Translations under genes and position numbers: made by a program
The notes under the pieces: model-generated
What the model saw: only the letters and a program-made list of their open reading frames with translations
Databases searched by the model: none
Told to the model about the DNA's origin: nothing
Assembly: GCA_001791305.1 (NCBI GenBank)
Contig: MGEI01000005.1
Span: forward strand, 146,698-210,697
From: Candidatus Uhrbacteria bacterium RIFCSPLOWO2_01_FULL_47_17
GTDB lineage: Bacteria > Patescibacteriota > Patescibacteriia > UBA9934 > GWF2-40-263
Direction of reading: 5' to 3'
DNA: 64,000 bases
Shown: positions 6,285 through 29,837 of the stretch, piece by piece
Position numbering within the stretch: position 1 is the first letter of the stretch
Layout of the letters: every line of letters begins with the position of its first letter

Positions 6285-6300
6285 GCTTGGTTTTTTTGTG

Positions 6301-6355: not shown

Positions 6356-6369
6356 AAAAAACATTTGAT

Positions 6370-7338: not shown

Positions 7339-7339
7339 T

Positions 7340-8263
7340 ATGATCGTCACTCTCTCCTCAATACTCCAAAAAGCTCGCCGCGGACATTATGCCGTGGGGG
7401 CGTTTAATGTGAACAATCTGGAAACGATTCAGGCAGTTATGGATGCGGCGGAAGCGGAACGATCACCGGTTATTTTGCAAACGTCCGAAGGCGCGATTGC
7501 GTATGCGGGGATGGAAGAGCTTGCGGCACTTGTGCATGTGGCGGCAAAAAAATCCAAACGTCCGGTGGTGTTTCATCTGGATCATGGAAAAAATTTTGAT
7601 TTGGTGATGGAAGCGATTGAAAGCGGATGGTACACGTCCGTGATGTTCGACGGGAGCGCACTTTCGTTTGAAGAAAATGTCGCGATGACAAAAAAGATTG
7701 TAGCGTGTGCGCACAAAAGAAAAATCTCGGTCGAAGCCGAGCTTGGGGCAATTGCAGGAATCGAAGATTTTGTGAGTGTCTCAGAAAAAAATGCACATCT
7801 CACCAACCCGGAGCAAGCTCGCACGTTTGTCGCGAAGACCAAATGCGATGCACTCGCGATTGCAATCGGCACACGTCACGGCGCGTTCAAATATGAACAT
7901 GAATCTCAGTTGGATTTTGGACGACTGAAAAAAATTTCCGAATCTGTTTCTGTTCCTCTCGTTCTGCATGGAGCTTCAGGCGTCCCATCACATATCAAAG
8001 CACTCTGTACAAAATACGGCTGTGAAATCGCCTCGGCAAAGGGCGTTTCTGACGCGCATGTAAAAAAAGCCGTTTCGCTCGGCATCTGCAAAGTAAACAT
8101 CGACACAGATTTGCGCATTGCGTTTGATGCGGGTATTCGAAAGTTCTTGCACGATAAACCAGAGGTCATTGATCCGCGAGAAATTCTCGGACCGGCAAAG
8201 GATTTGATCACAAAAGTGGTGAGGCAGAAAATGAAGATGCTAGGGAGTAGCGGAAAAGGCTAG
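7340..8263 (+). CDS. fba: class II fructose-bisphosphate aldolase
   Basis: GHYAVGAFNVNNLE, VILQTSEGA, FHLDHG, LVLHGASG. ATG at 7340 (MIVTLSS) preferred over the track start 7319, which overlaps the upstream gene. Confidence 0.85.
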   Translation: MIVTLSSILQKARRGHYAVGAFNVNNLETIQAVMDAAEAERSPVILQTSEGAIAYAGMEELAALVHVAAKKSKRPVVFHLDHGKNFDLVMEAIESGWYTSVMFDGSALSFEENVAMTKKIVACAHKRKISVEAELGAIAGIEDFVSVSEKNAHLTNPEQARTFVAKTKCDALAIAIGTRHGAFKYEHESQLDFGRLKKISESVSVPLVLHGASGVPSHIKALCTKYGCEIASAKGVSDAHVKKAVSLGICKVNIDTDLRIAFDAGIRKFLHDKPEVIDPREILGPAKDLITKVVRQKMKMLGSSGKG

Positions 8264-8265
8264 CG

Positions 8266-8396
8266 GGGTTGGCAAAGTTTGCAAGGTTGGCGAAAAAAAC
8301 TTTGGATTATCATCCGGAGTTTTTTGTTTCGTGATATAATTTCATCAATGAATTTTTTTCATGCAAACTTTGCCAACCTTGCAAACCTCGCCAACC
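8266..8396. promoter_or_regulatory. two inverted arrays of 9-bp repeats (GGTTGGCAA AGTTTGCAA GGTTGGCGA ... rc) flanking an extended -10 box (tgatataat, about 8330-8338) upstream of the second PfkB gene
   Basis: array 8266-8292 and inverted array 8362-8396; the same 9-mers recur at 26871-26960. Confidence 0.5.
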
Positions 8397-9336: not shown

Positions 9337-10326
9337 ATGCCGTACAAAATTTTCGTTACGCGATCGATTCCTGATGCTGGAATCAAACTTCTGCAGGCAA
9401 ACAAGAATGTTTCGCTTGATATTTACGAACGCGATCAACAGATTCCTCGAAAAGAACTGCTTAGACGCGTACGAGGAGCAGATATTATTTTGTCGATCTT
9501 AACAGAAAGAATGGACAAAGAAGTCATGGATGCAGCAGGACCACAGTTAAAGATGATCGCAAACTATGCGGTTGGGTTTGATAATGTTGATGTGAAAGAG
9601 GCGGCGAGGCGAAAAATCGTTGTGACAAATACTCCGCATGAGCGTGTGAATGAATCTGTTGCCGAACACACGGTCGCCCTTTTATTCGCCCTCGCGCATC
9701 GCATTGTCGAAACGGACGCGTTTACCCGTGCAGGAAAATATCATGCTTGGGGGCCAAAACTGTTGCTTGGTACAAGTCTTGTTGGCAAAACGATGGGAAT
9801 TGTTGGAACGGGTCGCATTGGATCATCCGTCGTCAAACGTCTTCACGATGGATTCGGTATGAAGATTCTTTATTCCGATTTGAATCGCAACAAAGATCTC
9901 GAAACAACAACCGGAGCAAAATATCGTACGCTCGAGAAACTTCTCGTAGAATCTGATTTTGTCTCTATTCACGTTCCCCTCCTAAAATCCACGCATCATT
10001 TGATGAGCGCGAAACAATTCAAACTCATGAAACCAACGGCGTTTCTCATCAACACCGCTCGCGGACCGATTGTGGATGAACACGCTCTTGTCGAGGCGCT
10101 ACGCAACAAAACAATCGCCGGCGCAGGATTAGATGTCTATGAAGGCGAGCCTTTGATTGCACTCAATCCTCGAGACATTAAAGAACTACGACAAATGAGA
10201 AACGTTGTTCTGACTCCCCACACAGCCTCTGCAACCATAGAAGCACGACAAGCCATGAGCGAAACCGCTGCAAAAAATATCCTCGCGTTCGTACGCGGAA
10301 AGGTTCCGCCAAACGCAGTGAAATAA
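9337..10326 (+). CDS. D-isomer-specific 2-hydroxyacid dehydrogenase (glycerate/phosphoglycerate dehydrogenase-like)
   Basis: Rossmann GIVGTGRIGSSV, catalytic-domain pattern, C-terminal LTPHTASAT. Confidence 0.8.
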   Translation: MPYKIFVTRSIPDAGIKLLQANKNVSLDIYERDQQIPRKELLRRVRGADIILSILTERMDKEVMDAAGPQLKMIANYAVGFDNVDVKEAARRKIVVTNTPHERVNESVAEHTVALLFALAHRIVETDAFTRAGKYHAWGPKLLLGTSLVGKTMGIVGTGRIGSSVVKRLHDGFGMKILYSDLNRNKDLETTTGAKYRTLEKLLVESDFVSIHVPLLKSTHHLMSAKQFKLMKPTAFLINTARGPIVDEHALVEALRNKTIAGAGLDVYEGEPLIALNPRDIKELRQMRNVVLTPHTASATIEARQAMSETAAKNILAFVRGKVPPNAVK

Positions 10327-10327
10327 T

Positions 10328-10465
10328 ATGGCACACGATCACAAACACGACCAGGATCATGAACACCATCACCATAACGATGACCACGCATTTGAACACC
10401 GCTTATCCTTCTGGGCGGGCGTAATTTTACTCGTCGTTCTGATCGCAATTCTGCTTGGATTATAA
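10328..10465 (+). CDS. small His-rich membrane peptide (about 45 aa: MAHDHKHDQDHEHHHHNDDHAFEH + one TM helix)
   Basis: ATG 2 nt after the upstream stop; strongly biased His/Asp composition followed by a hydrophobic helix; not in the ORF track (<60 aa). Confidence 0.35.
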   Translation: MAHDHKHDQDHEHHHHNDDHAFEHRLSFWAGVILLVVLIAILLGL

Positions 10466-10504
10466 AGAAACAAAAAAGATCATCGTGAAGATGATCTTTT
10501 TTGT

Positions 10505-10580
10505 TGGTGGACCAACAGGGACTCGAACCCTGGACCCTCTGCTTGCAAAGCAGATGCTCTACCAACTGAGCTATTGGCCC
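10505..10580 (-). tRNA. tRNA-Ala (anticodon TGC)
   Basis: rc reads GGGCCAATAGCTCAGTTGGTAGAGCATCTGCTTTGCAAGCAGAGGGTCCAGGGTTCGAGTCCCTGTTGGTCCACCA; G3:U70, anticodon loop TTTGCAA. Confidence 0.9.
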
Positions 10581-11197
10581 GAACGAGAGAAGAAGCTTGC
10601 ACCAAGATTATTCCGAGTGAGGCCGATAGCTTTGCGAAGCAAACGCTATTGACCCTCTCTTGAGGTGGCAAAAGTATAACATTTTGATTTTTTCTGTCAA
10701 TAACTCGCGAATCTTTTCCTTATTTCTAACCTTTTCTCTAAAAGTTATCCACAACTCCCTTTCAGACAAATCCACAACAAAAAGAGTGAGACCAGAGTGT
10801 GTGCAAGAAAAAATTCTTTTCGTTTCTCACTTTAATAATATTTTCTTGCATAAAGAATCACCGCATAAATATTGAGGGAAAATAATTTTTTGTTGAATAC
10901 AAAATAAAATAATGTTGTGAAGAAAAAAAGTTTACGTGTATATTCATCTCACAAAAAATATTTGTGTCTCAATATTTGTTACGAAAAAAAATATTTTTTC
11001 ATCACAAAATCTCTTGTCGATTTTTATAGACGTATTATAATTGTAAGTGATCGGAGGAGTATGCGCGCGTCATACGAAAACGATTTTCAGCGCACACTAA
11101 ATGTGCGATGCTCGATCGAGCATGTAATTTTTAACCGAACACCAAAGAGAATGTCTCTGTGCTCTGTTCACGCCTAAAGGAGGTGACCAATAATATT

Positions 11198-11296
11198 ATG
11201 GCAGCTAAAAAGAAAGCAGCGAAGAAAAAAGCAGCTCCAAAGAAGAAAGCAGCTAAGAAACCAGCAAAGCGCAAAGCAGCTAAGAAGCGTAAATAG
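11198..11296 (+). CDS. small highly basic Lys/Ala-repeat protein (32 aa, MAAKKKAAKKKAAPKKKAAKKPAKRKAAKKRK); histone-H1-tail / HU-like composition
   Basis: strong RBS aaaggagg 14 nt upstream, clean stop, followed by a terminator; below the ORF-track length cutoff. Confidence 0.55.
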   Translation: MAAKKKAAKKKAAPKKKAAKKPAKRKAAKKRK

Positions 11297-11302
11297 TCAG
11301 GA

Positions 11303-11340
11303 ATAAAAACTCTCTCGGACGCGCCGAGAGAGTTTTTATT
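11303..11340. terminator. bidirectional rho-independent terminator (aaaactctctcgg acgcg ccgagagagtttttatttt)
   Basis: perfect 13-bp stem flanked by A-run and T-run, between convergent genes. Confidence 0.6.
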
Positions 11341-12684
11341 TTAGATCAATTTTTCTTGATTGAGTTTCTTCGGACCAAATTCTCCGAAGAGAGTAATCCT
11401 TCCGTAGATGCCGTCGTAGCCTGGTTGTTTAAAGACCTCTCCGATTCGCATACGGCGAATGGCTTCGCCGAGTGTTGGTTCAGATGATATCGATATGATC
11501 GTTTTGATCGGTGTATCAAGGAGAAGGGTGAGTTCATCAATCTGATCTGTGAGTTTCGTGTACTCGAGCTGAATTTTCTTCGAGGTCGTTGACCTTACGC
11601 CATAGATCTCCGCGAGAATCTCCGCAAGTGGAATGATCGACTTAAACGGAATCTTTCGATCGACGACTGTCTCGAACTTCCGATCGGAAAGTTCCTCAAC
11701 ACGGTGATGAACACCGAGCGTTAACTTCTTTTTACACTTCGGACATCGCTCACCGAGTTTTATGGATTCCTCTGGCGAACAACAAAATAAATCCGCCGCA
11801 CATCCATCAAAGTGATACTTCCCTTCTTCGGGGTAAAACTCGATCGTATAGCGAAACACATTGCGATCTTGTTCCTTGAGTGCGCGCACGAAGTCGGAAT
11901 ACGTCGGTGGCGCGTCAAACTCAAACACATTTGCCTCGCGTGCAAGGTTCTTCGGCGAATGCGCATCCGAATTCGAGATGAAAACAACCTTATCGAGCTC
12001 GGAAAGTTGCCAGTTCATTTGTGGATCGGACGATAACCCAGTTTCGATCGCGTAAACATACTTCGACATGGATCCGAAGCACTCCTCGATCGAGTTAAAA
12101 CCGGATTTTGAACCGAAGATCGCATACCACGGCGTCCATGCGTGAGCGGGAATGATAATGATTCGGTCGTCGATCTCGCGAAGTAACTTGTAGAGTGCTT
12201 CCGAATCAATACCAAGAATTGGGCGACCATCGGATTTCAGATTAAATCCACGTTTGGTTAGTTCCTGATTTACTTTTTTACAAGTTTCAAGAGAAGGCGA
12301 CCAGACCAAGTTGTGAACACGACGGGTTTGTTCTCCTTTTTTATAGATCTGTGAAATCTCGGTGACGAACATGAATTCGGTGGGACGGCGGAGTGGTTGA
12401 GTGATGGAGTGGTTGAGTGATGGAAGAGAAGAGCTTTTATTTTTATTAACTGCTCTGCAAAGCAGCTTCCCGCCTGTCGAAGTCCGTAGTCGATAAATCC
12501 CCTCGCGCACTTCCTCGAGGTTCTCCTCCAGGTGCGCGAACCACTTCGGGTGTGTCCAATCCCCTGTTGCAACGATGTTGATTCCTTTTCGTTCACACCA
12601 TTCCGCAATCTTCGGTAATTCCAAATCCTTCGAGCAAGCTCGAGAGTATTTAGAGTGAACATGCCAGTCCGTGATGTAGCGCAT
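11341..12684 (-). CDS. PHP-domain protein with C-terminal Cys4 zinc-ribbon, endonuclease Q-like (TIGR00375-type)
   Basis: N-terminal WHVHSKYSRACS (PHP His motif), HSPKN, DGCAADLFCC...CPKCKKK zinc ribbon; carries a 2x16-nt tandem insertion (see repeat 12390-12421). Confidence 0.5.
   Translation of the reverse strand: MRYITDWHVHSKYSRACSKDLELPKIAEWCERKGINIVATGDWTHPKWFAHLEENLEEVREGIYRLRTSTGGKLLCRAVNKNKSSSLPSLNHSITQPLRRPTEFMFVTEISQIYKKGEQTRRVHNLVWSPSLETCKKVNQELTKRGFNLKSDGRPILGIDSEALYKLLREIDDRIIIIPAHAWTPWYAIFGSKSGFNSIEECFGSMSKYVYAIETGLSSDPQMNWQLSELDKVVFISNSDAHSPKNLAREANVFEFDAPPTYSDFVRALKEQDRNVFRYTIEFYPEEGKYHFDGCAADLFCCSPEESIKLGERCPKCKKKLTLGVHHRVEELSDRKFETVVDRKIPFKSIIPLAEILAEIYGVRSTTSKKIQLEYTKLTDQIDELTLLLDTPIKTIISISSEPTLGEAIRRMRIGEVFKQPGYDGIYGRITLFGEFGPKKLNQEKLI
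12390..12421. repeat. 2x tandem 16-nt unit GGAGTGGTTGAGTGAT inside the EndoQ-like CDS; related copy at 20680-20710 upstream of the 23S
   Basis: read directly; encodes SLNHSITQPL in the minus-strand frame. Confidence 0.5.
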
Positions 12685-16562: not shown

Positions 16563-16868
16563 AATGTAAACTTGCTGTTCTCACGAACAACAATTGAAGA
16601 TCAACAGAACTTATTCTAAACCTAATTTTTTCTGGTACGTGCGTACTCTGTGAACTCTCTTATGCAAGAGAGGTTGTAGAGCTCGACCTATTAGTACTGC
16701 TCGGCTGAACATCTTACGATGCTTACACCTACAGCCTATCAACCTGCTAGTCTCGCAGGGGTCTCAAATGAAGACTTATCTTTGGATCGGCTTCACGCTT
16801 AGATGCTTTCAGCGTTTATCCGAACCGAACGTAGCTACCCAGCGATGCCCTTGGCAGGACAACTGGTG

Positions 16869-16908
<40 letters not shown>

Positions 16909-16944
16909 TGGATTCCATCAATCTTCGACGCCCATGGTAGATAG

Positions 16945-16996
<52 letters not shown>

Positions 16997-17027
16997 TGGC
17001 GAACAGCCAAACCCTTGGGACCTTCTA

Positions 17028-17063
<36 letters not shown>

Positions 17064-17604
17064 GAACCACGCCGTCGCTGTGGACGCTTGGGCGTGACTA
17101 GCCTGTTATCCCCGGAGTAGCTTTTATCCGATGAGCTTCCGCCGTCCTATTTCGTACGGTCGGATCACTAACTTCTGCTTTCGCAACTGCGCGACTTGTA
17201 AGTCTTGCAGTAAAGCTGGCTTCTGCGTTTGCACGTCCAGCGCGATTTCCATCCGCGCCAAGCCAACCTTTGTAAACGCCTCCGTTACATTTTGGGAGGC
17301 ACCCGCCCCAGGTAAACTACCCACCAGATCCTGTCCCTCCCTCCGGTTTCACGGAAGGTGGTTAGACTTTACACAACGCAAGGGTGGTATCTCACTGGTG
17401 CCCGAAGGCTCCCACCTATTCTGAACATGCGGAACATAAAATCAAGACCAAGTTGTAGTAAAGCTTCACGGGGTCTTTTCGTCTTACCACGGGAAGTGAG
17501 CATCTTCACTCACATTGCAATTTCGCCGAGTACATTGTTGAGAGAGTCTCCAAGTCGTTATGCCATTCGTGCAGGACGGAACTTACCCGTCAAGGAATTT
17601 CGCT

Positions 17605-18330
17605 CTTTGTTGTTACGATCCATTGATCGACGTAGTCATTTCTGCCACGTTCTGCATGTCACCATGCAGGTCGGACTCTATCTTCTTCGAAGGTTTCGAA
17701 GTCTGGCGTATAGTCTCTGAGGATTCCAGAAATTTTGATGGAACTTTTCGATTCATCAATTGGATAATCTTTGCAATTTCTTTCTGACCTTGATGATTCT
17801 TGTGCGTTCCTTCCTTCATCATTTGAAGGAGCTGAGCAAAGAGTTCAAAATCATTTTTCTTTGAAGTTTGCAAAGAGTATTTTTGGAAGAACGGAATAAT
17901 CTTCTCTCGAAGATCTTCTTGCGATCTTACACAATACTTTAGCAATGGTTCTCTGTGATTATCATGACGAGTGTTCTGATAAATCTGACCGCATCCGAAA
18001 TACTCACGAATGAGTTCCAGACTTGATCGACTTTTCATACCTTGTGTCACAACAAACTCAGGAAACACCTGCCATCCAAGGCTTGTGGTTTTGTTTCGAA
18101 TCAAACTGACTGAGAAGCAACCCTCTCCGTCAACAAATCCGCAAATCCACCACGCCATTTCTAGTCTTTCCTGCTGATTGTCTCGTTTTTTTATCATACT
18201 ATGGTTATATTTTACCATAGAGTGAACGAGGTGTTCCAGCATATAGCCAAATTTTTCTTTATCTACGTCTGTGAGGCATCACAGTTCGATAATGAGAGGT
18301 CATTCACCTCACTAAGGCAGCTTTTATTTC
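17605..18330 (-). mobile_element. 23S rRNA intron (likely group I) in domain IV, inserted within the conserved CCUAAGGU^AGCGAAAUUCC sequence, carrying a LAGLIDADG homing-endonuclease ORF
   Basis: 23S similarity breaks after ...caaggaatttcgct (17604) and resumes at accttaggacgattatagtt (18331); about 726 nt in between. Confidence 0.7.
17613..18242 (-). CDS. LAGLIDADG homing endonuclease (intron-encoded)
   Basis: WICGFVDGEGCFSVS motif (LAGLIDADG variant), 209 aa, entirely inside the 23S intron. Confidence 0.75.
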   Translation of the reverse strand: MLEHLVHSMVKYNHSMIKKRDNQQERLEMAWWICGFVDGEGCFSVSLIRNKTTSLGWQVFPEFVVTQGMKSRSSLELIREYFGCGQIYQNTRHDNHREPLLKYCVRSQEDLREKIIPFFQKYSLQTSKKNDFELFAQLLQMMKEGTHKNHQGQKEIAKIIQLMNRKVPSKFLESSETIRQTSKPSKKIESDLHGDMQNVAEMTTSINGS

Positions 18331-19182
18331 ACCTTAGGACGATTATAGTTATCGCCGGCGTTCATCCGCGCTTCAGTCGAAAGCTTTGACCCCGAAGGAT
18401 CTAACCCCCTTCCTTAACGTTCGGACACTGGCCAGGCATCAGCCCCTATACTTCACTTTGCAGTTTTGCAGGGACCTGTGTTTTTGGTAAACAGTCGCTT
18501 GGAGTCTTTCGCTGCGGGTCGCCCCCTCACAGGGGCAACCAGGCCTTATCCCGAAGTTACGGCCGTTGTTTTGCCGAGTTCCTAAACAATGTTTCTCTCG
18601 TACGCCTTAGTGCATTACGCACCCACTCACCTGTGTCGGTTTACGGTACGGGTCTCTATCACATTAGCCTTAGCGGCTTTTCTTGGCTCCGTGTTCTTTC
18701 CCCTTGTTTCCTGTTGCCAGAAAACTTGCGATCATATTCGTGCTCTGGATTAAACCAAGCGTGGTGGATTTGCCTGCCACGCGCCTAAATACGCCCAACG
18801 TCATAGCCATAGGACGCGGGAAATTTCACGAAGCGTCCCCGCTTCAGTGTGATAAAAAGTGCAGGAATATTAACCTGCTATGCATCGACTACGCCTTTCA
18901 GCCTCGCCTTAGCACCCGACTAACCCTGGGACGATTTGCGTTGCCCAGGAACCCTTAAGTTTACGGCGGACGGGGTTCTCACCCGTCTTTTTGCTACTCA
19001 TGCCAACATTCTCCCTTCGCATCGCTCCACCATGGGTCACCCCTTTGGCTTCAGCGCAATACGAATGCTCTCCTACCGCTTAACATTTAAAAATGTTAAA
19101 CCCTCAGCTTCGGCACATCATTTAGCCCCGGTACATTTTCGGCGCAGAAAAACTTGACCAGTGAGCTATTACGCTATCTTTA

Positions 19183-19213
<31 letters not shown>

Positions 19214-19792
19214 TTGTTTAAGTCTTTCCACCACCTTTTACACTTAATGATGATTTTGGGGCCTTAGCTTGAGATCTGGGCTGTTTCCCTTTCGACGTAT
19301 GGAGCTTAGCCCCCATCGTCTGACTGCCGGGAACACATGTTGGTATTCGGAGTTTGATTAGAGTCGCTACCCGAAGGCGCAAACTCGATTCAGTGCTCTA
19401 CCCCCAACACATTATTTACCGACGCTAGCCCAAAAGCTATCTCGGAGAGAACCAGCTATTACCGAGTTCGATTGGAATTTCTCCGCTATCCACAACTCAT
19501 CCCCGTGTTTTGCACGGCACGTGGGTTCGGCCCTCCACGAACTGTTACATTCGCTTCAGCCTGGTCATGGATAGGTCACCCGGTTTCGGGTTATGTGCGC
19601 GCCACCAATATTTCGCGGATTAACGCTCGCTTTCACTATGGCTTCGTCCCGGAGGACTTAACCAAGCGACGCACAACACACTCGTTGGCTCATTCTTCAA
19701 TAGGAACGCCATGACCCACTCTCCGCCTTGCGGCTTCGAGGGGCGCTGACTCCTTGTAAGTATACGATTTCAGATACTATTTCATTCCCCTT

Positions 19793-19826
<34 letters not shown>

Positions 19827-21094
19827 GTACACTATCGATCAGAACATGTATTTAGCTTTGCCAGATAGTCCCGGCAGATTCCTACAGGATTTCACGAGTC
19901 CCGTAGTACTCAAGAACAGTAATCATAATGACGTAATATATTTCGCGTACAGGACTTTCACCTTCTATGGTGTGACGTTCCAGTCACTTCCCCTATATAT
20001 TACATGGATTTCATTATCCGTTTTTTGAAGAAAACGACACTACCGTCTTACAACACCTATCTCTCGCAACGACTTCAATCTTTCGCATCCATTCACACAC
20101 AGTCTTGCGACTCCATGCTTACAAACACTTCACGAGAGAGGTTTGAGCTGTTCCCTTTTCGCTCGCCACTACTAAGGGAATCTATTCGTTTCGCGTTTCC
20201 ATACGACGTGCTGTCGGGTAAACCCGACTGGCCGCATGAAAACGTTAAACGAAATTGTTTTTTCTTTTCCTCTGGCTACTGAGATGTTTCACTTCACCAG
20301 GTGCCCTCCTTGCAACTATGTATTGATTGCAAAGTAATGCGGTATGAACCGCATTGGGTTGCCCCATTCGGATATCTTCGGATCAAAGGTTGTTTGCCAC
20401 CTCCCCGAAGCTTTTCGCAGGCTACTACGTCCTTCGTCGGCATGTTCTGTCAAGCCATCCTTCGTATACTCTTATTAATATGCTCTACAACCACTCTTAT
20501 TTAAGAGTGGTTCACTTCTTTGTGGTTTCTCTAATTCTGTTGATCTTCAATTGTAATGTTCGTGCGACCCTTGAAGGGTTTACCGAAATCTGTTTGATTC
20601 AAGGATCTGTTCTGGCCTTGAGGCCAGAGCTGAGCTACGACGCGAGAGTCGGAACTCAGCTCTAGGCACAAGAGACAAAGTGATGGAGTGGTTGAGTGGT
20701 GGAGTGAAGGTACTTGGCTTTTTGTTGAGAAGACACTATAAAACCGCCTTGTGGGCGGTCTTCAAGCAACAAAATTGTTACGATGAAGATCGTCCCTTAT
20801 ATTTGGTTTGCGTTACATGTGAACATATCCCCTTGTTCTCCGTAAGCTCCTTCTCCTCTCCATCCCATCAGCGGACCCATCTTCATGTGGGTCGATCAGC
20901 CAGATTATTCTTGGGACAAAGAAGAAGAAACGTATTCGATTTAAGTGGTGGAAGTTTAACGGAAGCCGAAAAGACTGTCAAGGGAATTTGTCCCAATTGT
21001 TTCCACAGGCATGTTTAACGATTTTATCTTGACAAAACCCCCATTTTCCGCTATGATTGTCTGATCCAAACGTTGGATCAACCAAGGAGGAGAG

Positions 21095-22501
21095 ATGCGT
21101 TCTTTCATCATAATCGCGATCGTTTTCATGTCCGCCTGTGAAAACAAGGTCGAAGGCCCAAAAGGCGATCAAGGAATCCAAGGTGTCGCTGGAGAGAAGG
21201 GCGACAAGGGTGAGCCTGGAGAAAAAGGCGAGGAAGGATCGAAGGGCGATCAGGGTGCAACCGGTTTGCAAGGCGAAAAAGGTTTGCAAGGCATCGCCGG
21301 TGAAAAAGGCGAAACCGGTTCGATCGGTTTGGCCGGAGTTCAAGGCGCGAAGGGAGATCCAGGATCGATCGGTCTTCCAGGTTCAGACGGAACATCTTGC
21401 GTCGGTCAGTCTGTAACCGAGGGCGTGCTCGTCACATGTGGCAAGGAAACATTCCTCGTGAAGCACGGCGATGTTGGACCGGCGGGAGCGAAGGGTGACA
21501 AAGGTGATGCTGGTTCGCAAGGCTTGAAAGGCGACCAAGGATTGCAAGGGATCCAAGGTGTCGCTGGAAAAGATGGCGTGCCTGGTCTCGATGGATTGCC
21601 TGGAGCAAAGGGCGATGTTGGACCGGCGGGAGCGAAGGGTGACAAAGGTGATGCTGGTTCGCAAGGCTTGAAAGGCGACCAAGGATTGCAAGGGATTCAA
21701 GGTGTCACCGGAAAAAATGGCACACCCGGTCTTGATGGATTGCCTGGAGCAAAGGGCGATGTTGGTTCTCAAGGGCTACAAGGAATTCAGGGAGACAAAG
21801 GAGATGCAGGATCCAAAGGTTCACCCGGATGGGATGGGATACCAGGATTAAAAGGAGACAAAGGGAATCAGGGTGAACAGGGTTTACAAGGAATCCAAGG
21901 ACCACAAGGTGTTCAAGGAAAACCAGGAGAACTTGGAAAAAACCTTGTGGCACAGTGCCCTGAAGGATCTAAAGCAATGGTGTTTAAAGGACACCTTAAG
22001 TACTGTGCTCATAAGTTTGTCTTTGAAAAAGGACTGACTTGGGAACAATGTCTGAACACGTGTCTGACGAACGGCTTATTGATTCCCCCACTTCACGAAT
22101 TTGCAATTATTTGCCTTGGAGATCCGACATTCTTCGATCAGGAAAAAGTTAATGGATGCCCGGACTTCCCCAACTGCTCAACCATTACTGGATGCCCGTC
22201 AGACTACAGTTGCTCAGACAAGCTCTGGTTCCACGTTGCCGAAAATCAGGCTGGTGGAGATACGACTCTTCGTCCAACACTAGCCTTCGAGCCATACTCC
22301 CCAGAAATGGGTAAGTATTTTTGCGAGGCCGTTCTGGAACAGAGTAAGGGAGTTGTGTATGCACAACCTAAATCTGGTCAAAAACGCATCTTCCTTAATT
22401 GGTACAGCTACCTTCGAACAGTGACGGTGCAAGACGACTTTGTTCCCACCGTGGACGCAACATTGCTTCCACGCGGCTGTCTTTGTGGAAAACAAATATG
22501 A
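21095..22501 (+). CDS. collagen-like triple-helix-repeat lipoprotein with Cys-rich C-terminal domain
   Basis: lipoprotein-type signal (IIIAIVFMSAC); about 260 aa of uninterrupted G-X-Y; internal 144-bp (48-aa) direct repeat x2 (21470-21613 / 21614-21757); about 190-aa Cys-rich C-terminus. Confidence 0.75.
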   Translation: MRSFIIIAIVFMSACENKVEGPKGDQGIQGVAGEKGDKGEPGEKGEEGSKGDQGATGLQGEKGLQGIAGEKGETGSIGLAGVQGAKGDPGSIGLPGSDGTSCVGQSVTEGVLVTCGKETFLVKHGDVGPAGAKGDKGDAGSQGLKGDQGLQGIQGVAGKDGVPGLDGLPGAKGDVGPAGAKGDKGDAGSQGLKGDQGLQGIQGVTGKNGTPGLDGLPGAKGDVGSQGLQGIQGDKGDAGSKGSPGWDGIPGLKGDKGNQGEQGLQGIQGPQGVQGKPGELGKNLVAQCPEGSKAMVFKGHLKYCAHKFVFEKGLTWEQCLNTCLTNGLLIPPLHEFAIICLGDPTFFDQEKVNGCPDFPNCSTITGCPSDYSCSDKLWFHVAENQAGGDTTLRPTLAFEPYSPEMGKYFCEAVLEQSKGVVYAQPKSGQKRIFLNWYSYLRTVTVQDDFVPTVDATLLPRGCLCGKQI

Positions 22502-22533
22502 AATTCTCTAACGATCCTAATTTGGATCGTTTT

Positions 22534-23025
22534 TTATTTTGTAACATTGAAAAATTCAATGTCCTCTTCTGTTAACTCTTGGCACGTAAATCCACCACAC
22601 CACCAAGAAAATCCTTGTAAATCGTGTCGCATTGCAATTAACAATTCTCGCGCCGACTTGGCATTAAAATCTGGAGATTGAGCTGTGGTCAGGGAAACAA
22701 TAAGTTTTCTAAATTTTCTAACAACTTTTGGAGAGCTATAAAGCCATGACTCAGAATATTTTCTGATCACTTCTTTTGCTTTTGCCAACTTAAGATTTAA
22801 ATCAACATCAATACCAGAAAAAAAATATGAGAGATCTTCTCTTACAAAGTTAATATATGTTTTTTGAAGCCAGACTAACTGTTTTTCTTTCATGGAAGAT
22901 CTTATTTGTAACTTATGAGCTTGCCAGCCTACAACTAGCAAAAAGAAACCGCCAATTAATGCCACGACAATTCCATTTGAAGAAAAATTCAACATATTAT
23001 ATAAAACAACTTTTGTTAAAATCAC
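22534..23025 (-). CDS. hypothetical membrane protein (AT-rich, possibly accessory)
   Basis: ORF with one TM segment; low GC relative to its neighbours. Confidence 0.35.
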   Translation of the reverse strand: MILTKVVLYNMLNFSSNGIVVALIGGFFLLVVGWQAHKLQIRSSMKEKQLVWLQKTYINFVREDLSYFFSGIDVDLNLKLAKAKEVIRKYSESWLYSSPKVVRKFRKLIVSLTTAQSPDFNAKSARELLIAMRHDLQGFSWWCGGFTCQELTEEDIEFFNVTK

Positions 23026-23385
23026 AAAAAGCTATCAGCGCGCTGATAGCTTTTACTTTTATTCAACAGTATCTTCGAGATGATCCGTCGGATCAATCCC
23101 TGAAATCTTGATGCCTTTTCTAATTACTATTCCTGCATTCATCGTTACAGAGCCCAATTTAAAAGCTTGTACGACTTTATATTGTCCATTACCGATGTAT
23201 TCGAGACAATTTTTTAATTTCTGCATATTTTTATTATTTTATTGTTTGAACAAATATCCTGAAGTCGACCATGATGCAGAAAATGAGTTGCTAAGACTTA
23301 TTTCTATATCATCTTTCATGATTAGCACTCTGCATCATAGAGTGCTATCAACTGCGTGTCAAATAAAAAACGCTGGTTTTATTTA

Positions 23386-23482
23386 TTCAAATTCAATCTC
23401 ATCAATCGACCCAATCCGCGTCCACGCCACATGATCTCGCTCATGCATATAATCATGCTTCGCACCCGGGCGGACGATGATG
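23386..23482 (-). pseudogene. orphan duplicated fragment of the 3' end (last about 30 codons) of the HAD-hydrolase gene at 26191-26862
   Basis: about 85% nt identity to 26196-26290 in the same orientation; rc encodes ...RPGAKHDYMHERDHVAWTRIGSIDEIEFE vs the intact ...RPGAKHDYAHERDDVAWKRIGSIGEIEIE. Confidence 0.55.
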
Positions 23483-23489
23483 TATATTT

Positions 23490-23780
23490 TTACATCCTTT
23501 TAAATTTCGCTTGATTGATCTTTTCAAGCGTTGACAATGTCAAAATCACAGACGGATTCTGACTCACTTTCAAAAACAATCTGTCTCCAAACTTTTGTTG
23601 GAGGGGTGTTAAGAATTCATCGCCCCATGAGGGTGAGAAAACGCTCACACCTTCAAAATCAACAATAACTTCTTCATCAACCCCAACAGAATTCAGTGTC
23701 GGAAGAAACGCAGCGTATGATTCTTTGCCATTTTGACGCGAAGTGAAAACGGAACCGAATTTATTTAGATGTATAATCAT
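23490..23780 (-). CDS. STAS-like small protein (DUF4325-type; possible partner/antagonist of the adjacent GHKL ATPase)
   Basis: 96 aa; pattern EEVIVDFEGVSVFSPSWGDEFLTPL typical of DUF4325/STAS-like proteins; 10-nt gap to the upstream gene. Confidence 0.5.
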   Translation of the reverse strand: MIIHLNKFGSVFTSRQNGKESYAAFLPTLNSVGVDEEVIVDFEGVSVFSPSWGDEFLTPLQQKFGDRLFLKVSQNPSVILTLSTLEKINQAKFKRM

Positions 23781-23789
23781 ATATTTTGT

Positions 23790-24524
23790 TTAAAACTCGA
23801 TCACAGACAAACATCCGTGTATGGGATCGGGGGTTTTTTCTGTTTTAAATTTCAGAATGCCTTTTTGAATCCTGAGCGTGGCCGTGCCTGATTGAAAATT
23901 GAGCGTTGCATCGGCGAGGTTTAATGCGTCTTTTGTATATTTTAATCCGTTGCCGCGATGTTCATTTTCTCTGCTTGTGAGAATTTCCGTGAAAGCGACG
24001 TGCAACGCTTCTTGATCGGACACCAAATTCGGTCGAACGCGCTGAAGCGTTTTTAATACGCCTTGCCCTCGATCTGCGAGGATGATGATGCGTTTACCCA
24101 AATCATAAGCAAAAAATATTCCCGGAACATCCGGCCAGTTTCCGATGTTGTGATCATAGGAGTTGCTTCCGATTTCTCCTGCGGCCGAAGAAATAAGAGA
24201 CGCTGTTTTTATAAACAATGGATTTGCATCCATTTCATGAACCATACGTTCAAAACGCGTCTTAAAGACGTCGCTAGTTTGACAATAAAAATCAGATTCC
24301 GGAACAAACGGCGTTTCTGCATGAACCCATTCTTGAGCCAGTCGTAAAATTCCTTTTGTTTTTTTGTTGAGATCCGCCAATGAATAATAACGATGCCCTC
24401 CCGGCGTCACATAGGAAGCTGAAAATGTGCCATCATTATGCCAACGACGCAAAGTCATCTGTGAAACACCCAAATATCTGGCGGCTTCACTGATTGTGAG
24501 ATAGTTTTTTGAAAAGCTAATCAT
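23790..24524 (-). CDS. HTH (MerR/excisionase-type) DNA-binding domain fused to a GHKL/HATPase_c-like ATPase (anti-sigma-factor-kinase-like)
   Basis: N-terminus LTISEAARYLGVSQMTLRRWHNDG (HTH_17-like); C-terminal half with DRGQGV (G1-like) and HRGNGLKY (G2-like) boxes. Confidence 0.55.
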   Translation of the reverse strand: MISFSKNYLTISEAARYLGVSQMTLRRWHNDGTFSASYVTPGGHRYYSLADLNKKTKGILRLAQEWVHAETPFVPESDFYCQTSDVFKTRFERMVHEMDANPLFIKTASLISSAAGEIGSNSYDHNIGNWPDVPGIFFAYDLGKRIIILADRGQGVLKTLQRVRPNLVSDQEALHVAFTEILTSRENEHRGNGLKYTKDALNLADATLNFQSGTATLRIQKGILKFKTEKTPDPIHGCLSVIEF

Positions 24525-24647
24525 ATTGACATAAATTATACAAAACTATACAAATTTGTCAAATCTATACATTTCAAGTCATTACGCTATGCGCCTTATT
24601 TTTCCCATGCTAAGATTATTTTACGCTCCTTACAATTGAGGTGATTC

Positions 24648-25310
24648 ATGTCAAAACATTCAACCCTTCTCACACGTCGAGATGTTCTTCGAATCGTTCC
24701 ACTCGGAATCGCGGGAACTGTCATGTTGAGTCCAACACCTGCAGAAGCCCGTATTCTCGGAATCATCATCCGAATCGGAGCCTACGGAGTTGGATCAATC
24801 ATGGGTCCATTTCTCGCAGCAGGAATGCTTGCAGTTGGAGCTGTGGCAGCCGTAAATCACGGCCTGCACACAATGTTTCGTAGGGATTCTAGATCCTCAA
24901 ACAATGATAGTTACTCCTCGTATGCAACCTACTCACCAAGCGGATGGAAGGAATACGTGCCGCCCAAGCCAATCATCATCAGTGTCTCTTTCAATCCAAC
25001 TGAACGCATTGCAGGCGACGTCCTGCGCATACGTGCGATCGAACACGACATCCTCAAAAACGACGGTGTCGAGCTTCCTCGTGGCGGCAGACTGATCATC
25101 GAAGAGGATGGAACCTTGCGTTTCGCGGACACCAAGTTCCGCGGATATGCACACATCCAAAACAATGGCGATCTCTCTGTCTGGACGCCTGATCATCAAC
25201 ACGTTCTCACACGCACACCGCGCGAAAACAGGTTCCACAACATCCACCACAATTCGGACGATGGACGTTCGGCATTGGTGTCATTGCTTGGAGAGATTAA
25301 ACATGTGTAA
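24648..25310 (+). CDS. Tat-signal secreted protein, unknown function
   Basis: TRRDVLRIVPLGIAGTVMLSPTPAEA resembles a twin-arginine signal peptide. Confidence 0.5.
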   Translation: MSKHSTLLTRRDVLRIVPLGIAGTVMLSPTPAEARILGIIIRIGAYGVGSIMGPFLAAGMLAVGAVAAVNHGLHTMFRRDSRSSNNDSYSSYATYSPSGWKEYVPPKPIIISVSFNPTERIAGDVLRIRAIEHDILKNDGVELPRGGRLIIEEDGTLRFADTKFRGYAHIQNNGDLSVWTPDHQHVLTRTPRENRFHNIHHNSDDGRSALVSLLGEIKHV

Positions 25311-26109
25311 GAACATACGTTGGATATCTCTTGCGATTGTCGCATGCATCTTCGTTCCCAGCACACATATGGCAGAAGAACCGTCTCCGGTTGATAAACT
25401 TCAAGGTGAAACTCGAACGGAAACAGTTAGATCTATGAATGAATTCATGATCTCAATTTCTGACCTAGAACCACACGTACAGGCAAGACTCTTGAAAGCA
25501 CGGCTTATAAATACTAGAATGATTTTTAAAAATGATAGGCCATGGATTGGTCAGTCTGAAGAGTACTATAGAAAATGTCAATGTAGTGAAGAAACTGACT
25601 ATCCAAGACATCCTTACTATATTTCTTCCCTTGCTACAGGGAAAAATATTTGGTCACTATCATATGTCATATATTACGGGAGGAATTATGGTGATAGACT
25701 GTTTCGTCTTGAAACTGTCGTAAACATTGAACCGAATTCCTTAATGTTAGAATGGATGCGTGCTCGGGACGAATATGCAGAATACTCAAAAGAAAAAATT
25801 AGTGGCATAGACGCTACGGTTAACATCTCTGGAAAAATCGATTCGTTTACCTGGGAACAAAACACGGGAGGTAACTTCTTTGTAACATCTGTACTCAAAA
25901 AACAAAAAGTGTCATGGTACAAGCAAGACATGATCAGCTGTAAACTTACAATGACATTGAATCCATTCTCCCCGGATGCGATCGCCTCATGGAAACTTCT
26001 CTATTCGTTGCCAGAACACACAAACATTTTGAATGAAAAAATAGCCGAATGGGTAAAGTACTACATGGGAAAAGGTGAAAAACCTAAACCTATTCTCGAC
26101 AAAAATTAA
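25303..26109 (+). CDS. secreted hypothetical protein
   Basis: ATG overlaps the upstream stop (ATGTGTAA); signal peptide MCKNIRWISLAIVACIFVPSTHMA. Confidence 0.5.
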   Translation: MCKNIRWISLAIVACIFVPSTHMAEEPSPVDKLQGETRTETVRSMNEFMISISDLEPHVQARLLKARLINTRMIFKNDRPWIGQSEEYYRKCQCSEETDYPRHPYYISSLATGKNIWSLSYVIYYGRNYGDRLFRLETVVNIEPNSLMLEWMRARDEYAEYSKEKISGIDATVNISGKIDSFTWEQNTGGNFFVTSVLKKQKVSWYKQDMISCKLTMTLNPFSPDAIASWKLLYSLPEHTNILNEKIAEWVKYYMGKGEKPKPILDKN

Positions 26110-26190
26110 CAAACCAAACGCACGCATAGTCCCGGTCAAAAAAACCTTGAGCTCACGCTCGGTTGCCTTATTTGATCGGGCTTTTTTATT

Positions 26191-26862
26191 TCACTCAATT
26201 TCAATCTCCCCAATCGACCCAATCCGTTTCCACGCCACATCGTCTCTCTCATGCGCATAATCATGCTTCGCTCCTGGTCTTACGATGCGGTAGAGCTGGA
26301 TCGGTAATCCGGCGTCCACTATTGGGTTCAGTTCATTCGGGCTGTCGTCGACGAATGCGATCGGACAGACCTCCCCCTGCCCCATTACCTGACCACCCCC
26401 TAGCCCCCTCCTTATAAAGGAGGGGGTTTCCGAGAGCATTTCTCGCAACACCGTCACTTTCAAATTGTTCGGCCCCGCGATTCGGATCGTGTCGAAGTAA
26501 TCATTCAAACCTGTCGAGGCGATCTTTGATCGTTGATACTCCGCGTTTCCGTAGGTCAGAATCGAAAACGTATGCGGCGGTCTGTGTTTCTCAAAAAACG
26601 GCACGACGTCATCATAAACGAGACTCGAGCCGATACTTTGCGCGTGAACGAGAAAATTTTGGACAAGCGTATCAACTTCCGACTCGGAAATTCCACACAT
26701 GAGTGCGTGCGCGCGATGTGTCCAACCGATTGCGTTTAAAATTCCCATTTGCTTGATGGCGACTTCACGATCAACTCCAAGACCCACAAGAATTTCCAGC
26801 CATTCAGACCAAATTTTTTCTGTGTTGAAAAGCGTGGAGTCGAAGTCACAGACGAGGTGCAT
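26191..26862 (-). CDS. HAD-superfamily hydrolase (phosphatase)
   Basis: motif I LVCDFDSTLF starts at residue 3 when ATG 26862 is used (the track start at 26922 would translate the promoter repeat array); FVDDSPNEL motif III. Confidence 0.75.
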   Translation of the reverse strand: MHLVCDFDSTLFNTEKIWSEWLEILVGLGVDREVAIKQMGILNAIGWTHRAHALMCGISESEVDTLVQNFLVHAQSIGSSLVYDDVVPFFEKHRPPHTFSILTYGNAEYQRSKIASTGLNDYFDTIRIAGPNNLKVTVLREMLSETPSFIRRGLGGGQVMGQGEVCPIAFVDDSPNELNPIVDAGLPIQLYRIVRPGAKHDYAHERDDVAWKRIGSIGEIEIE

Positions 26863-26870
26863 AGGGAAAG

Positions 26871-26960
26871 GTTGGCAAGGTTTGCGGGGTTGGCGATGTT
26901 GGCAAAAATTATGAATCGGCACAATGCAAACCTTGCAAACTTTGCCAACCTTGCAAACCC
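26871..26960. promoter_or_regulatory. inverted arrays of 9-bp repeats (GGTTGGCAA GGTTTGCGG GGTTGGCGA TGTTGGCAA ... rc) flanking the -10 box (cataat, minus strand) of the HAD-hydrolase promoter
   Basis: same 9-mer family and same flank-the-minus-10 geometry as 8266-8396. Confidence 0.5.
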
Positions 26961-27617: not shown

Positions 27618-27718
27618 TTAAGAGGGTCCATGTCGAGGCATTGACATTTTGCACTTTTTTCCGTACAGTCCTTGGTCTTTGTAATCAAACAAAGGCAAAC
27701 CACCGGCGTGAGGCAACC

Positions 27719-28585
27719 ATGGGCAAACGACGCTTAAATGGCGAACATATCCAGGTTAGGCTTCCGGAAACCCTGTTTTCTCTTCCGGAAGGCTATACAG
27801 ACAAGCTCAGAGCTGCATCCTACAAAGGAGGCGAACGCACTGCTTCCATCTTGGAAAAAAAGGAAGCAATTTCGGAAGGCGAATTTGCCTTAGAACAAGA
27901 AACATACCGACAGATAGCGGGAGAAAATTTGGCCTTTTTCCATTTGCTGATGAGTTGTTATCTCTCGCGAATGGTTTACGACTTTGAGAGGATTGCTTTC
28001 GATCATCGAGCGAGTCTACGCAATAAATACCTCATTGCGGCCATGTCGCAAAAGGAGCTCACGATCGCGTGTCTATACCTGAAGCCAAAGATCATCCCCC
28101 ACATCCCCTCTTGGGACAAACACATCCACATGGGCTACAACGGCTGGTGGGCATCACACTTTTATGGAGCGGTGACCGTGGCGCGTGTCGCCCGGCGACT
28201 TTTACAAGAAGGAGCTGAGGTTCGACTTCCAACCGCCGCAGAGGACATCGATGACAAAATCGATCTCATCGCCTCATTCAAAGGACGATCGGAAGGTCTG
28301 TGCATGCAGATCAAGTCAGATGACCAGGTCGAGTGGATTCAACACCGCGTGTGTTCCGGACTCAATCCGAATCGTGAACCGGAATCGTTGCGACGCTTCC
28401 TCTTGGGAACGCGAAAATTCCAAGATCAATACCGCGGCATTTGGATTCCGATTGAACTCACCCTTGGCTCAAAGCCGTTTCAAGACGGAACAACCGTTTG
28501 GCGGGGTCCAATCGTTGATATTTTCCACACGATCCTTACAAAGGCGCTCGAAGAACACGACCCATCGCTTCGTGCGGCCATGTAA
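27719..28585 (+). CDS. uncharacterised protein, tandem paralog 1 (RHH-like N-terminus KRRxxGxxIQVRLPE)
   Basis: ATG 27719; paralogous to 28730..29629 (shared AxENLAFFHLLMS / AEENVGLYHLLLS, ARVxxxxxxxGAE, KIDLIASF..GLCMQIKS / RIDLLVRF..GLCVQIKT, GIWIPIELTLG / GMWFPLEIMIG). Confidence 0.55.
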   Translation: MGKRRLNGEHIQVRLPETLFSLPEGYTDKLRAASYKGGERTASILEKKEAISEGEFALEQETYRQIAGENLAFFHLLMSCYLSRMVYDFERIAFDHRASLRNKYLIAAMSQKELTIACLYLKPKIIPHIPSWDKHIHMGYNGWWASHFYGAVTVARVARRLLQEGAEVRLPTAAEDIDDKIDLIASFKGRSEGLCMQIKSDDQVEWIQHRVCSGLNPNREPESLRRFLLGTRKFQDQYRGIWIPIELTLGSKPFQDGTTVWRGPIVDIFHTILTKALEEHDPSLRAAM

Positions 28586-28595
28586 CTCCTCCTTC

Positions 28596-28640
28596 GACCC
28601 GCTTTGGGTCGTTTTTATTACGTCGCTCGCGAGCGACGTA
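28596..28640. terminator. hairpin terminator (gacccgctttgggtc + T-run) followed by a 20-bp perfect palindrome acgtcgctcgcgagcgacgt between the two paralogs
   Basis: read directly. Confidence 0.5.
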
Positions 28641-28729
28641 ATTTATTTGGAACGGTTGACAAACTCGTCTTTTTCACGTTAAATAGCTGGTCACCCCTTT
28701 CCGGGTGTCACATCAGAAGGAGGTTCTCT

Positions 28730-29629
28730 GTGGCCAAGCGTCGTTGTAAAGGCGCGTACGTCCGAATCGAGCTTCCGGACAAACGCACGACTCTTCCTGA
28801 AAATACAGCCGATCTTCTGAAAGAAGCGGCGGACTTTGCCATCTTGCGTGCTCACTCCATTTGGAAAATGTCCGAGCAAAACAAGCGTGGATGGATCACT
28901 TACATACAAATTAGCGAAGAAACATTTCGCGAAGATCGCGAACGATTTCAGGAAATCGCGGAAGAAAACGTCGGGCTTTATCATCTGCTCTTGTCCGTCT
29001 TTTTCACGAAGATTCATCAAGAAATGGAACCAAGAGCCTCGGCGCATAAAATTCGTACACGAAACGCGTACCTTTCGGCCGGAATGGCGCAACGAGAAAT
29101 CTCAAGCGCCTGCCTCTGTCTCAGCGAGGAGAGTGCGAGAACGATTCCTCAAATGAAATCTGAAACATTTGGAATCGATCCTCATATTTGGCTTACAGGC
29201 TTTATTGGAGGAAGGTCGGTTGCACGTGTGATTGCTGCATTCATGAATCGTGGGGCAGAAATCTTTTTCCCGACAGCGTACATCGACATTCAAGGTCGCA
29301 TCGATCTGTTGGTGCGATTCCCTGTGAATAGTCTTGGGCTGTGCGTACAGATCAAAACATTTCAGAACCTGAACCACATTCGTTATCGTCTCATCCCGGA
29401 AGTGCCTTATCATCAAATCAAGGAGCTGTCTGAAGACGATCAATACTTTCTGAAAGGCGTAACGGAATTCCGCAGCGACAATATCGGCATGTGGTTCCCT
29501 CTTGAAATCATGATCGGAGACGCGTCCTACACACAACGATACATCGATCCACCGCGTAACATTACTTACGCGTTTGATCGAATGCTCATGGATCTCTTCG
29601 AACACGCAAAAGAATTCGCAACCCCTTAA
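28730..29629 (+). CDS. uncharacterised protein, tandem paralog 2
   Basis: GTG start 28730, 6 nt after RBS aaggagg, aligning VAKRRCKGAYVRIELPD with MGKRRLNGEHIQVRLPE of paralog 1; the track ORF starts further upstream at 28604. Confidence 0.55.
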   Translation: MAKRRCKGAYVRIELPDKRTTLPENTADLLKEAADFAILRAHSIWKMSEQNKRGWITYIQISEETFREDRERFQEIAEENVGLYHLLLSVFFTKIHQEMEPRASAHKIRTRNAYLSAGMAQREISSACLCLSEESARTIPQMKSETFGIDPHIWLTGFIGGRSVARVIAAFMNRGAEIFFPTAYIDIQGRIDLLVRFPVNSLGLCVQIKTFQNLNHIRYRLIPEVPYHQIKELSEDDQYFLKGVTEFRSDNIGMWFPLEIMIGDASYTQRYIDPPRNITYAFDRMLMDLFEHAKEFATP

Positions 29630-29710: not shown

Positions 29711-29837
29711 GATGAAACTTCCAAAATTGGTGCCTCGCGCCGTGCTGGAGGCAAAAAGATCGTGAGAGGTATCCTAAAATACCTCGAACAATTTTTTGCC
29801 GAAGCGCAAGCGAGGCGCCGATTTTGGAAGTTTCATC
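29711..29837 (+). other. structured leader: 28-bp inverted repeat (gatgaaacttccaaaattggtgcctcgc ... gcgaggcgccgattttggaagtttcatc) enclosing a structured loop of about 70 nt, ending 1 nt before tRNA-Leu(TAG)
   Basis: arms are near-perfect reverse complements; the same core IR (AAACTTCCAAAATTGG/CCGATTTTGGAAGTTT) precedes tRNA-Leu(TAA) at 39697-39822. Confidence 0.45.

Follow-up and report, generated by a model that had tools for sequence, protein, structure and literature searches.

This analysis concerns the DNA just upstream of a 23S-5S rRNA operon in a 64,000-nt stretch (the window, to whose positions all coordinates refer) of the genome of a Candidatus Uhrbacteria bacterium, a member of the Patescibacteria or candidate phyla radiation (CPR). 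There, the 3' end of a small hydrolase gene of the HAD family, called the resident gene below, recurs as an orphan tail on the other side of a 2.7-kb interval of accessory genes. On balance, we consider the orphan to be probably the 3' stump of a second, once complete HAD gene, most likely a tandem copy of type B, which was truncated by the insertion of gene cassettes into a hotspot for gene gain. The repeat is real, and it most likely reflects ordinary genome decay and not the scar of a mobile island that an earlier note on this DNA had seen in it.

The recurrence of the HAD-gene end in the same orientation, which had been put at about 85% identity, is confirmed by alignment. blastn pairs 23377-23479 with 26184-26287 at 83.7% identity over 104 nt (E = 4.5e-24, direct orientation), MAFFT gives a mean column identity of 86% for two 131-nt segments, and a repeat search (family D4) matches 23372-23484 to 26180-26292 at 80% without gaps, the longest exact run common to both copies being 17 nt. 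The true start of the resident gene lies at 26862 (MHLVCDFD), where 17 of 17 homologues, covering 91% of the open reading frame (ORF), also begin, and the 243-aa ORF from 26922 is an upstream extension of it. Read on the minus strand, the orphan encodes KDVKIYIIVRPGAKHDYMHERDHVAWTRIGSIDEIEFE followed by a stop, and the resident protein ends in LPIQLYRIVRPGAKHDYAHERDDVAWKRIGSIGEIEIE and a stop; the stop codon is equally placed in the two, and similarity runs about 12 nt beyond it. The orphan has no start codon and no HAD sequence upstream, where its frame is closed by a stop, and it begins directly after the stop codon of a gene for a DUF4325 protein. Besides the orphan and the resident gene, tblastn found no HAD fragment at 20.4-27 kb.

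The significance of this repeat depends on how HAD tails behave across the family, which is small, belongs to the Patescibacteria and divides into paralogues of type A (P0001-P0008) and type B (P0009-P0018). The last 33 codons are strongly conserved, at the DNA level included: the last ~100 nt are 75-85% identical between genomes, types A and B taken together, and the bodies of A and B genes are only 0.45-0.50 identical. The tail of the orphan has an identity of 0.82 to that of the resident gene, 0.83 to that of the HAD-A of relative L002 and 0.79 to those of the HAD-B genes of relatives L003 and L007, and the resident and L007 HAD-B tails reach 0.85. An identity of ~84%, as between orphan and resident, is thus what any two tails ordinarily show and no mark of a duplication in this genome. 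Similarly, among the parsimony-informative sites of five tails, orphan and resident share none, orphan and L003 HAD-B share four, and resident and L007 HAD-B share four. The two repeat copies are not specifically related, with an identity of 0.82 against 0.79-0.85 for the tails of other genomes and zero shared derived sites.

The arrangement expected of an intact ancestor is found in L003, a groundwater contig (ERZ909572 k127_355071), in which HAD-A (10001-10645) is followed on the same strand, after a gap of 52 nt, by HAD-B (10698-11315). This HAD-B is intact and occupies the position of the orphan in the window, and the tandem pair follows an alpha/beta hydrolase gene and a pair of paralogues of ~300 aa, both kept in the window. 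The two loci share the same backbone order through the 23S leader, and the final 118 nt of L003 HAD-B match the orphan at 81% identity (81.4% by blastn; 88.5% over 87 nt with L002 HAD-A). They differ in that the second HAD gene of the window is reduced to its last ~36 codons and in that 2.7 kb of unrelated genes separate the copies. Other relatives keep a single type, A in L002, L004, L009, L030 and L031, and B in L007, L008 and L012.

The site itself is a hotspot for gene gain. The backbone order of the clade runs from two paralogues, p341 and p314, through the alpha/beta hydrolase and the HAD gene or genes to the 23S rRNA promoter. In L008 and L012, which carry HAD-B, and in L031, which carries HAD-A, the conserved 23S leader starts ~30-65 nt from the HAD stop, and the -35 element of the conserved rRNA promoter CCCTTGACAG-N17-TAAACT lies ~50-60 nt from that stop; the leader is thus the backbone flank directly after the HAD gene, and none of the island genes lies between the two in these three relatives. 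As the earlier note had supposed, the interval is accessory relative to such genomes, which are ~75-80% identical to the window in hydrolase DNA. At the equivalent site, L002 carries a PnuC-like gene, L030 a SocA_Panacea gene, and L003 and L004 genes for TrmB-type regulators and others. The window holds 5.2 kb there, made up of the 2.7-kb interval, the orphan, an AT-rich block with two small ORFs (ORF55 and ORF163) and a collagen-repeat gene, and this content is lineage-specific. The locus thus records a hotspot immediately upstream of a 23S rRNA promoter in a CPR lineage.

The substitutions of the orphan fit a gene end that was once under selection. Orphan and resident differ by a synonymous divergence (dS) of 0.58, with a ratio of nonsynonymous to synonymous divergence (dN/dS) of 0.23, values within the range found between genomes. 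Changes unique to the orphan are spread evenly, with 6, 3 and 5 at the three codon positions, whereas most changes of functional tails lie at the third (1, 2 and 7, 0, 1 and 4, and 1, 0 and 4); eight of the orphan's changes fall on sites invariant in 10 homologues, and the residues replaced include L, P, L and R. Together, these patterns point to a long divergence within a working gene and then to drift after truncation, both readings resting on ~100 nt. We interpret the orphan, an in-frame fragment without a start, as a putative pseudogene under relaxed constraint.

According to the model that we favour, the ancestor of the species would have carried a tandem HAD-A/HAD-B pair. At least two unrelated two-gene cassettes, one encoding a helix-turn-helix (HTH) protein with a GHKL ATPase domain together with the DUF4325 protein, and the other encoding the proteins p220 and p268, would have taken the place of ~165 codons at the start of the second HAD gene, through insertion that was probably illegitimate rather than site-specific. 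The ORF55/ORF163 block and the collagen-repeat gene would have been inserted separately, downstream of the stump, which would have drifted once it had been truncated.

Several observations weigh against this model. Among the genomes compared, no relative of the same genus combines an intact HAD-B with the downstream flank of the orphan, and a relaxed tblastn search of 20.4-27 kb found nothing left of the 5' part of a second HAD gene. Three of the four sites that link the orphan to L003 HAD-B lie in two adjacent codons beside the junction, and the count is small. The similarity of orphan and resident over ~12 nt past the stop is slightly above what is expected of old paralogues; L003 HAD-B likewise has an A-rich run after its stop. 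Typing of the orphan as A or B by protein or DNA identity was rejected, A and B tails being intermixed and ~100 nt giving no robust tree. Moreover, the resident A-type gene bears a B-like tail, so that recombination of tails has occurred and offers another possible route to the arrangement.

This exchange of tails is apparent beyond the window. The A-type genes of the window and of L002 have tails that are nearest to B-type tails of other genomes, synonymous sites included. L002 HAD-A and L003 HAD-B are 0.84 identical in the tail, with 19 of 23 codons identical, and 0.48 in the body; the resident gene is nearest to L007 HAD-B in its tail and to L002 HAD-A in its body, a mismatch from which we infer that tails have been exchanged in the HAD family; and the A gene of the L003 tandem pair has a divergent tail. 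For two pairs, the excess of identical codons in the tail over the body gives Fisher p values of 0.002-0.006, uncorrected. Taken together, these sequence comparisons suggest gene conversion or hybrid formation between HAD paralogues.

Base composition bears on where the boundaries of an inserted element would lie. The earlier note had described the interval as visibly richer in AT than a backbone of ~50% GC. The region 22502-26190, at 40.3% GC, does lie below every other 3.7-kb segment of the window, with a tetranucleotide z of 3.5. That part stands; the backbone is at 46.5% (the value for the whole window) and not ~50%, the signal is uneven, and its extreme is found outside the repeats. Between the repeat copies, GC content is 42.4% and the tetranucleotide z falls to 1.0, with the p220 gene at 50.7%, and the orphan, at a backbone-like 48%, lies between a block of 42% and another of 33%. 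The deviant composition is consequently not confined to the interval bounded by the repeats, as it extends to the 33% GC block beyond them.

Some genomic islands and prophages insert at the 3' end of a tRNA, tmRNA or protein gene, which then regains its end from attP. The window resembles such islands in its direct repeat of a gene's 3' end, in the same orientation and with accessory genes between the copies. Unlike them, it lacks a recombinase, a kinship specific to the repeats, a coherent cargo, a matching boundary of composition, and a polymorphism of empty and occupied sites among the contigs compared. A decayed site-specific element in the HAD 3' end, with the two copies as attL and attR and an integrase since lost or acting in trans, would be consistent with ~104-nt direct repeats flanking a 2.7-kb interval of lower GC content, and with the single tail that relatives show at the site. 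We nevertheless judge it very improbable. No integrase, transposase, recombinase or excisionase-recombinase pair is encoded by the ten largest, gene-like ORFs at 21-29.6 kb according to Pfam, as had been noted from the letters alone; eight, seven and seven of these ten were also scanned by PADLOC, PHROGs and NCBIfam, respectively, and only an excisionase/MerR-type HTH was found. Tails taken from different genomes resemble each other as much as the repeats do, and the repeats share no exact match beyond the 17-nt run. The cargo does not travel as a unit: the island genes, sought elsewhere, occur as two modules apart, HTH-GHKL/DUF4325 and p220/p268, in varied chromosomal contexts and without HAD tails, so that the supposed island combines two or more unrelated modules and is not one element. 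No empty site was seen, the six contigs compared being 100% identical across the interval (the analysis covered seven places among the 23 contigs that carry the exact 244-aa HTH-GHKL protein). Phage and plasmid origins were also rejected, as the HTH-GHKL protein had no tblastn match in 50,697 phage records and 22502-26190 had no blastn match in PLSDB; two degenerate patterns of an attP-like HAD tail gave 0 matches in 2.9 million IMG/VR viral contigs. The claim that an element which replaced the HAD 3' end left the repeat behind is thus not supported, in view of the family-level identity, the zero shared sites, the intact second HAD gene of L003, the mosaic cargo, the compositional extreme outside the repeats, the missing recombinase and the lack of an empty site. 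The earlier note had hedged between a decayed element, mobilization in trans and another duplication mechanism; the last of these comes nearer the truth.

Three readings that require no integrase also have to be weighed. One invokes a one-sided homologous import, in which DNA of another Uhrbacterium, bearing the hydrolase, HAD-A and the cassettes, recombined on the hydrolase/HAD side and was joined illegitimately on the other side inside the HAD gene (A or B) of the recipient, whose old tail would be the orphan. The present HAD gene, or its end, would then have arrived with the cassettes, an integrase-free form of the replacement end. This accounts for the common orientation, the missing recombinase, tails that diverged long ago (dS 0.58), the zero shared derived sites, the sharp junction at the stop of a full-length DUF4325 gene and the resident gene's mismatch of tail and body. 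However, the hydrolase shows no mosaic breakpoint, sliding identity to seven relatives being flat at ~0.7-0.85; the cassettes are accompanied by a HAD gene at no other locus; the second and more AT-rich block beyond the orphan is left unexplained; and the window keeps both p341 and p314, as L003 does, which fits the retention of old duplicates. We regard the import as unlikely, albeit a close rival of the favoured model. A local duplication of the resident 3' end, through a long target duplication or slippage at cassette insertion and followed by neutral drift, would agree with orphan changes that look neutral next to resident changes that look selected, and with the extra codon (E before the stop) common to both copies. 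This terminal codon occurs in L003 HAD-B, L013 HAD-B and P0016 too, the orphan is as near L002 HAD-A and L003 HAD-B as it is to the resident gene, and orphan and resident have zero derived sites in common against three other tails, all of which makes such a duplication hard to credit. Finally, the conserved HAD tail could serve as a recombination anchor, cassettes being captured beside the 23S promoter without an integrase, by homologous recombination in the HAD tail or gene at one end and illegitimate joining at the other. We find this doubtful, slightly more so than the import. If true, a displaced old tail would remain as the gene gained an imported end, and B-like tails on A-type genes as well as their unusually few synonymous differences would be explained.

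With the stump of a tandem HAD gene as the reading that we retain, the locus calls for caution: a duplicated gene end beside low-GC genes resembles an integration scar, and tandem paralogues with a conserved terminus give the same picture by decay. None of these points would surprise specialists.

A few further observations concern the HAD genes. Structured RNA was rejected as a cause of the nucleotide conservation of the tails, since the consensus fold of seven tails reached -7.96 kcal/mol with a positive covariation term and single-sequence z-scores were -1.4 and +0.3. Searches with the HAD alignment returned only two loci on genome contigs and six on metagenome contigs, with no close relative among them. 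In L020 (ERZ28563660), a contig of the same species, the resident HAD gene (5681-6331) lacks 40 nt and 31 nt, corresponding to 26801-26840 and 26375-26405 of the window, and its frame is broken; the cause is an error of assembly or else pseudogenisation at the strain level, and if the deletions are real, HAD genes are expendable in the lineage. L004 holds at 9861-9911, ~90 nt upstream of its intact HAD gene, a stretch of 17 codons similar to the HAD N-terminus (59% identity, E = 0.009), which may be a further small HAD relic in another lineage.

Table 1. Features of the region around the repeated HAD-gene end, with positions in the window.
Feature	Position	Strand	Basis or remark
Conserved 23S rRNA leader	20400..21009	-	Promoter-like TTGACA-17-TAAACT at 20953-20981
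Collagen-repeat protein gene	21095..22501	+	Pfam Collagen, E = 8e-41
AT-rich block outside the repeats	22502..23382	-	33.3% GC; holds ORF55, ORF163, a promoter-like site and a palindrome
ORF163, N-terminal transmembrane segment	22534-23025	-	In AT-rich block; no family match
Perfect 28-nt palindrome, terminator-like	23027-23054		In AT-rich block
ORF55	23059-23226	-	In AT-rich block; no family match
Promoter-like site of AT-rich block	23334-23362	-	Pattern match
Orphan HAD tail	23377..23493	-	36-38 in-frame codons, stop at 23383-23385; tblastn E = 2e-12
DUF4325 (STAS-like) protein, 96 aa, full length	23490..23780	-	Pfam PF14213, E = 2.8e-6
MerR/HTH_17 DNA-binding domain + GHKL (Bergerat-fold) ATPase, 244 aa	23790..24524	-	Pfam (HTH), AlphaFold2, Foldseek
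Predicted sigma-70-type promoter TTGACA-16-TATAAT, 12/12	24535..24562	-	Before the HTH-GHKL/DUF4325 operon; pattern match only
p220, with hydrophobic segments and a twin-arginine-like signal (TRRDVL); rare family	24648..25310	+	No Pfam, PHROG or NCBIfam match
p268, signal-peptide-like N-terminus, near-orphan gene	25303..26109	+	Gene call in L016 and L018
Terminator-like hairpin after p268	26157..26181	+	T-run is the complement of the A-run after the HAD stop
Resident repeat copy	26184..26301	-	Last 36 HAD codons, stop and ~10 nt beyond; blastn, MAFFT, tblastn
Resident HAD-family hydrolase gene, type A	26191..26862	-	Weak Pfam HAD_2 match

The content that had been assigned to the interval, an HTH-GHKL and STAS-like gene pair with two secreted proteins, was recovered with Pfam, AlphaFold2 (AF2) and Foldseek, the secreted character being predicted from signal-like N-termini. 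An AF2 model of the 244-aa protein, with a predicted local distance difference test score (pLDDT) of 82.8, has a C-terminal domain for which the top Foldseek matches in the PDB are GHKL ATPase domains throughout, those of CheA (P4), topoisomerase II, Hsp90 and GyrB, with probabilities of 0.95-1.00. The protein has invariant motifs at E117/N121/D124 (the N-box), D151-R-G153-x-G155 and G191-N-G193-L-K. With a modelled Bergerat fold, an N-box and the G1 and G2 glycine motifs, it is thus predicted to be a member of the GHKL superfamily. A PDB search with a profile of 27 sequences found MerR-type HTH domains only, so that the GHKL assignment required the structure model. Its partner, which has a conserved serine in the motif SPSWGDEF, is full length, since in alignment its C-terminus coincides with that of the 96-aa homologues of L025 and L027, and its stop abuts the orphan.

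Homologues of the HTH-GHKL protein are numerous in the Patescibacteria (3489 at E <= 0.001), and the identical 244-aa protein, present on more than 20 metagenomic contigs, is among the annotated proteins of Candidatus Uhrbacteria bacterium RIFCSPHIGHO2_02_FULL_47_44. Metagenomes that contain the species include JGI 3300002529, ERZ4903137 and ERZ28563660. HTH-GHKL and DUF4325 genes are always adjacent in the loci inspected, with neighbours that vary (RecQ, Fic, methyltransferase, TrmB) and with no HAD-family tail nearby. In L027, a 347-aa fusion of HATPase_c/HATPase_c_2 and DUF4325 (11199-12242), located 2 kb from a separate HTH-GHKL/DUF4325 pair, hints at a joint action of ATPase and STAS-like protein.

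By analogy, the pair could be a regulator of the partner-switching kind, in which the GHKL ATPase or kinase would act on the STAS-like protein and the HTH would provide the transcriptional output. In the partner switching of SpoIIAB/SpoIIAA and RsbW/RsbV, a GHKL-type anti-sigma kinase is paired with a STAS anti-anti-sigma factor. The window shares with these systems a gene for a small GHKL-fold ATPase beside a STAS-like gene of ~100 aa, and departs from them in the MerR/excisionase-type HTH that forms part of the ATPase protein and in the lack of an adjacent sigma factor. DUF4325 is seldom mentioned in the literature, and the locus places a widespread, uncharacterised Patescibacteria pair, with over 3000 homologues, in a defined operon with a predicted promoter that is open to study. 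Assignment to a defence system was rejected, as PADLOC matched the HTH alone to mad1 (a 60-position profile) and found no system. A viral contig with terminase genes, L036 (IMG/VR UViG_3300022555_001665), ends with a 556-aa large serine recombinase and then, at the contig end, a 46% homologue of the HTH-GHKL protein (5575-8101). This looks like host flank beside a prophage end, and a prophage may have integrated by such a gene pair in another CPR host.

The second cassette is much rarer. p220 has no Pfam, PHROG or NCBIfam match and 24 relatives among 1.84 billion representatives, and p268, whose gene overlaps the end of the p220 gene by 8 nt, has no family match and a single distant homologue, P0140, at 40%. 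p220 together with a p268 homologue recurs in L034 and L035, beside other neighbours and without HAD tails at these loci, forming a rare and putatively exported two-gene unit.

On the rRNA side of the orphan, the AT-rich block is absent from all relatives fetched, and the collagen-repeat gene has no match in relatives at the site. The matches of this gene to 'tail fibre' PHROGs are due to its collagen repeats alone. Its 144-nt tandem duplication at 21467-21754 is 94% identical, the unit being present in two copies in the window and in one in L015, L017 and L021, and the products range from 409 to 468 aa across assemblies.

The rRNA operon itself (20485-16452, minus strand) includes a 23S rRNA gene (16670-20485, minus strand) of 3816 nt, against a model of 2925 positions, with a 209-aa ORF at 17613-18242 that contains a LAGLIDADG-type motif (GFVDGEGCF). 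LAGLIDADG genes in the rRNA number none, one or three among near-identical contigs of the same species, and the intron content of the rRNA is therefore polymorphic. On the other flank, the two paralogues of ~300 aa that precede the hydrolase (27641-29629), p341 and p314, have no assigned function and share 32% identity; L002, L003, L007 and L008 have each retained either or both of them, which mirrors the differential loss of HAD-A and HAD-B. Clusters of a repeat with a 9-nt period (TTGCAAACC / TTGCCAACC; 9 matches against 0.12 expected) lie in inverted arrangement at 26868-26960 and at 8267-8395, one of them filling the spacer between hydrolase and HAD gene, and may represent a small intergenic repeat element or an operator array. 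Further upstream, an inverted repeat of 28 nt (29711-29738 and 29810-29837, 93% complementary, arms 71 nt apart) abuts the 5' end of a tRNA-Leu(TAG) gene at 29838.

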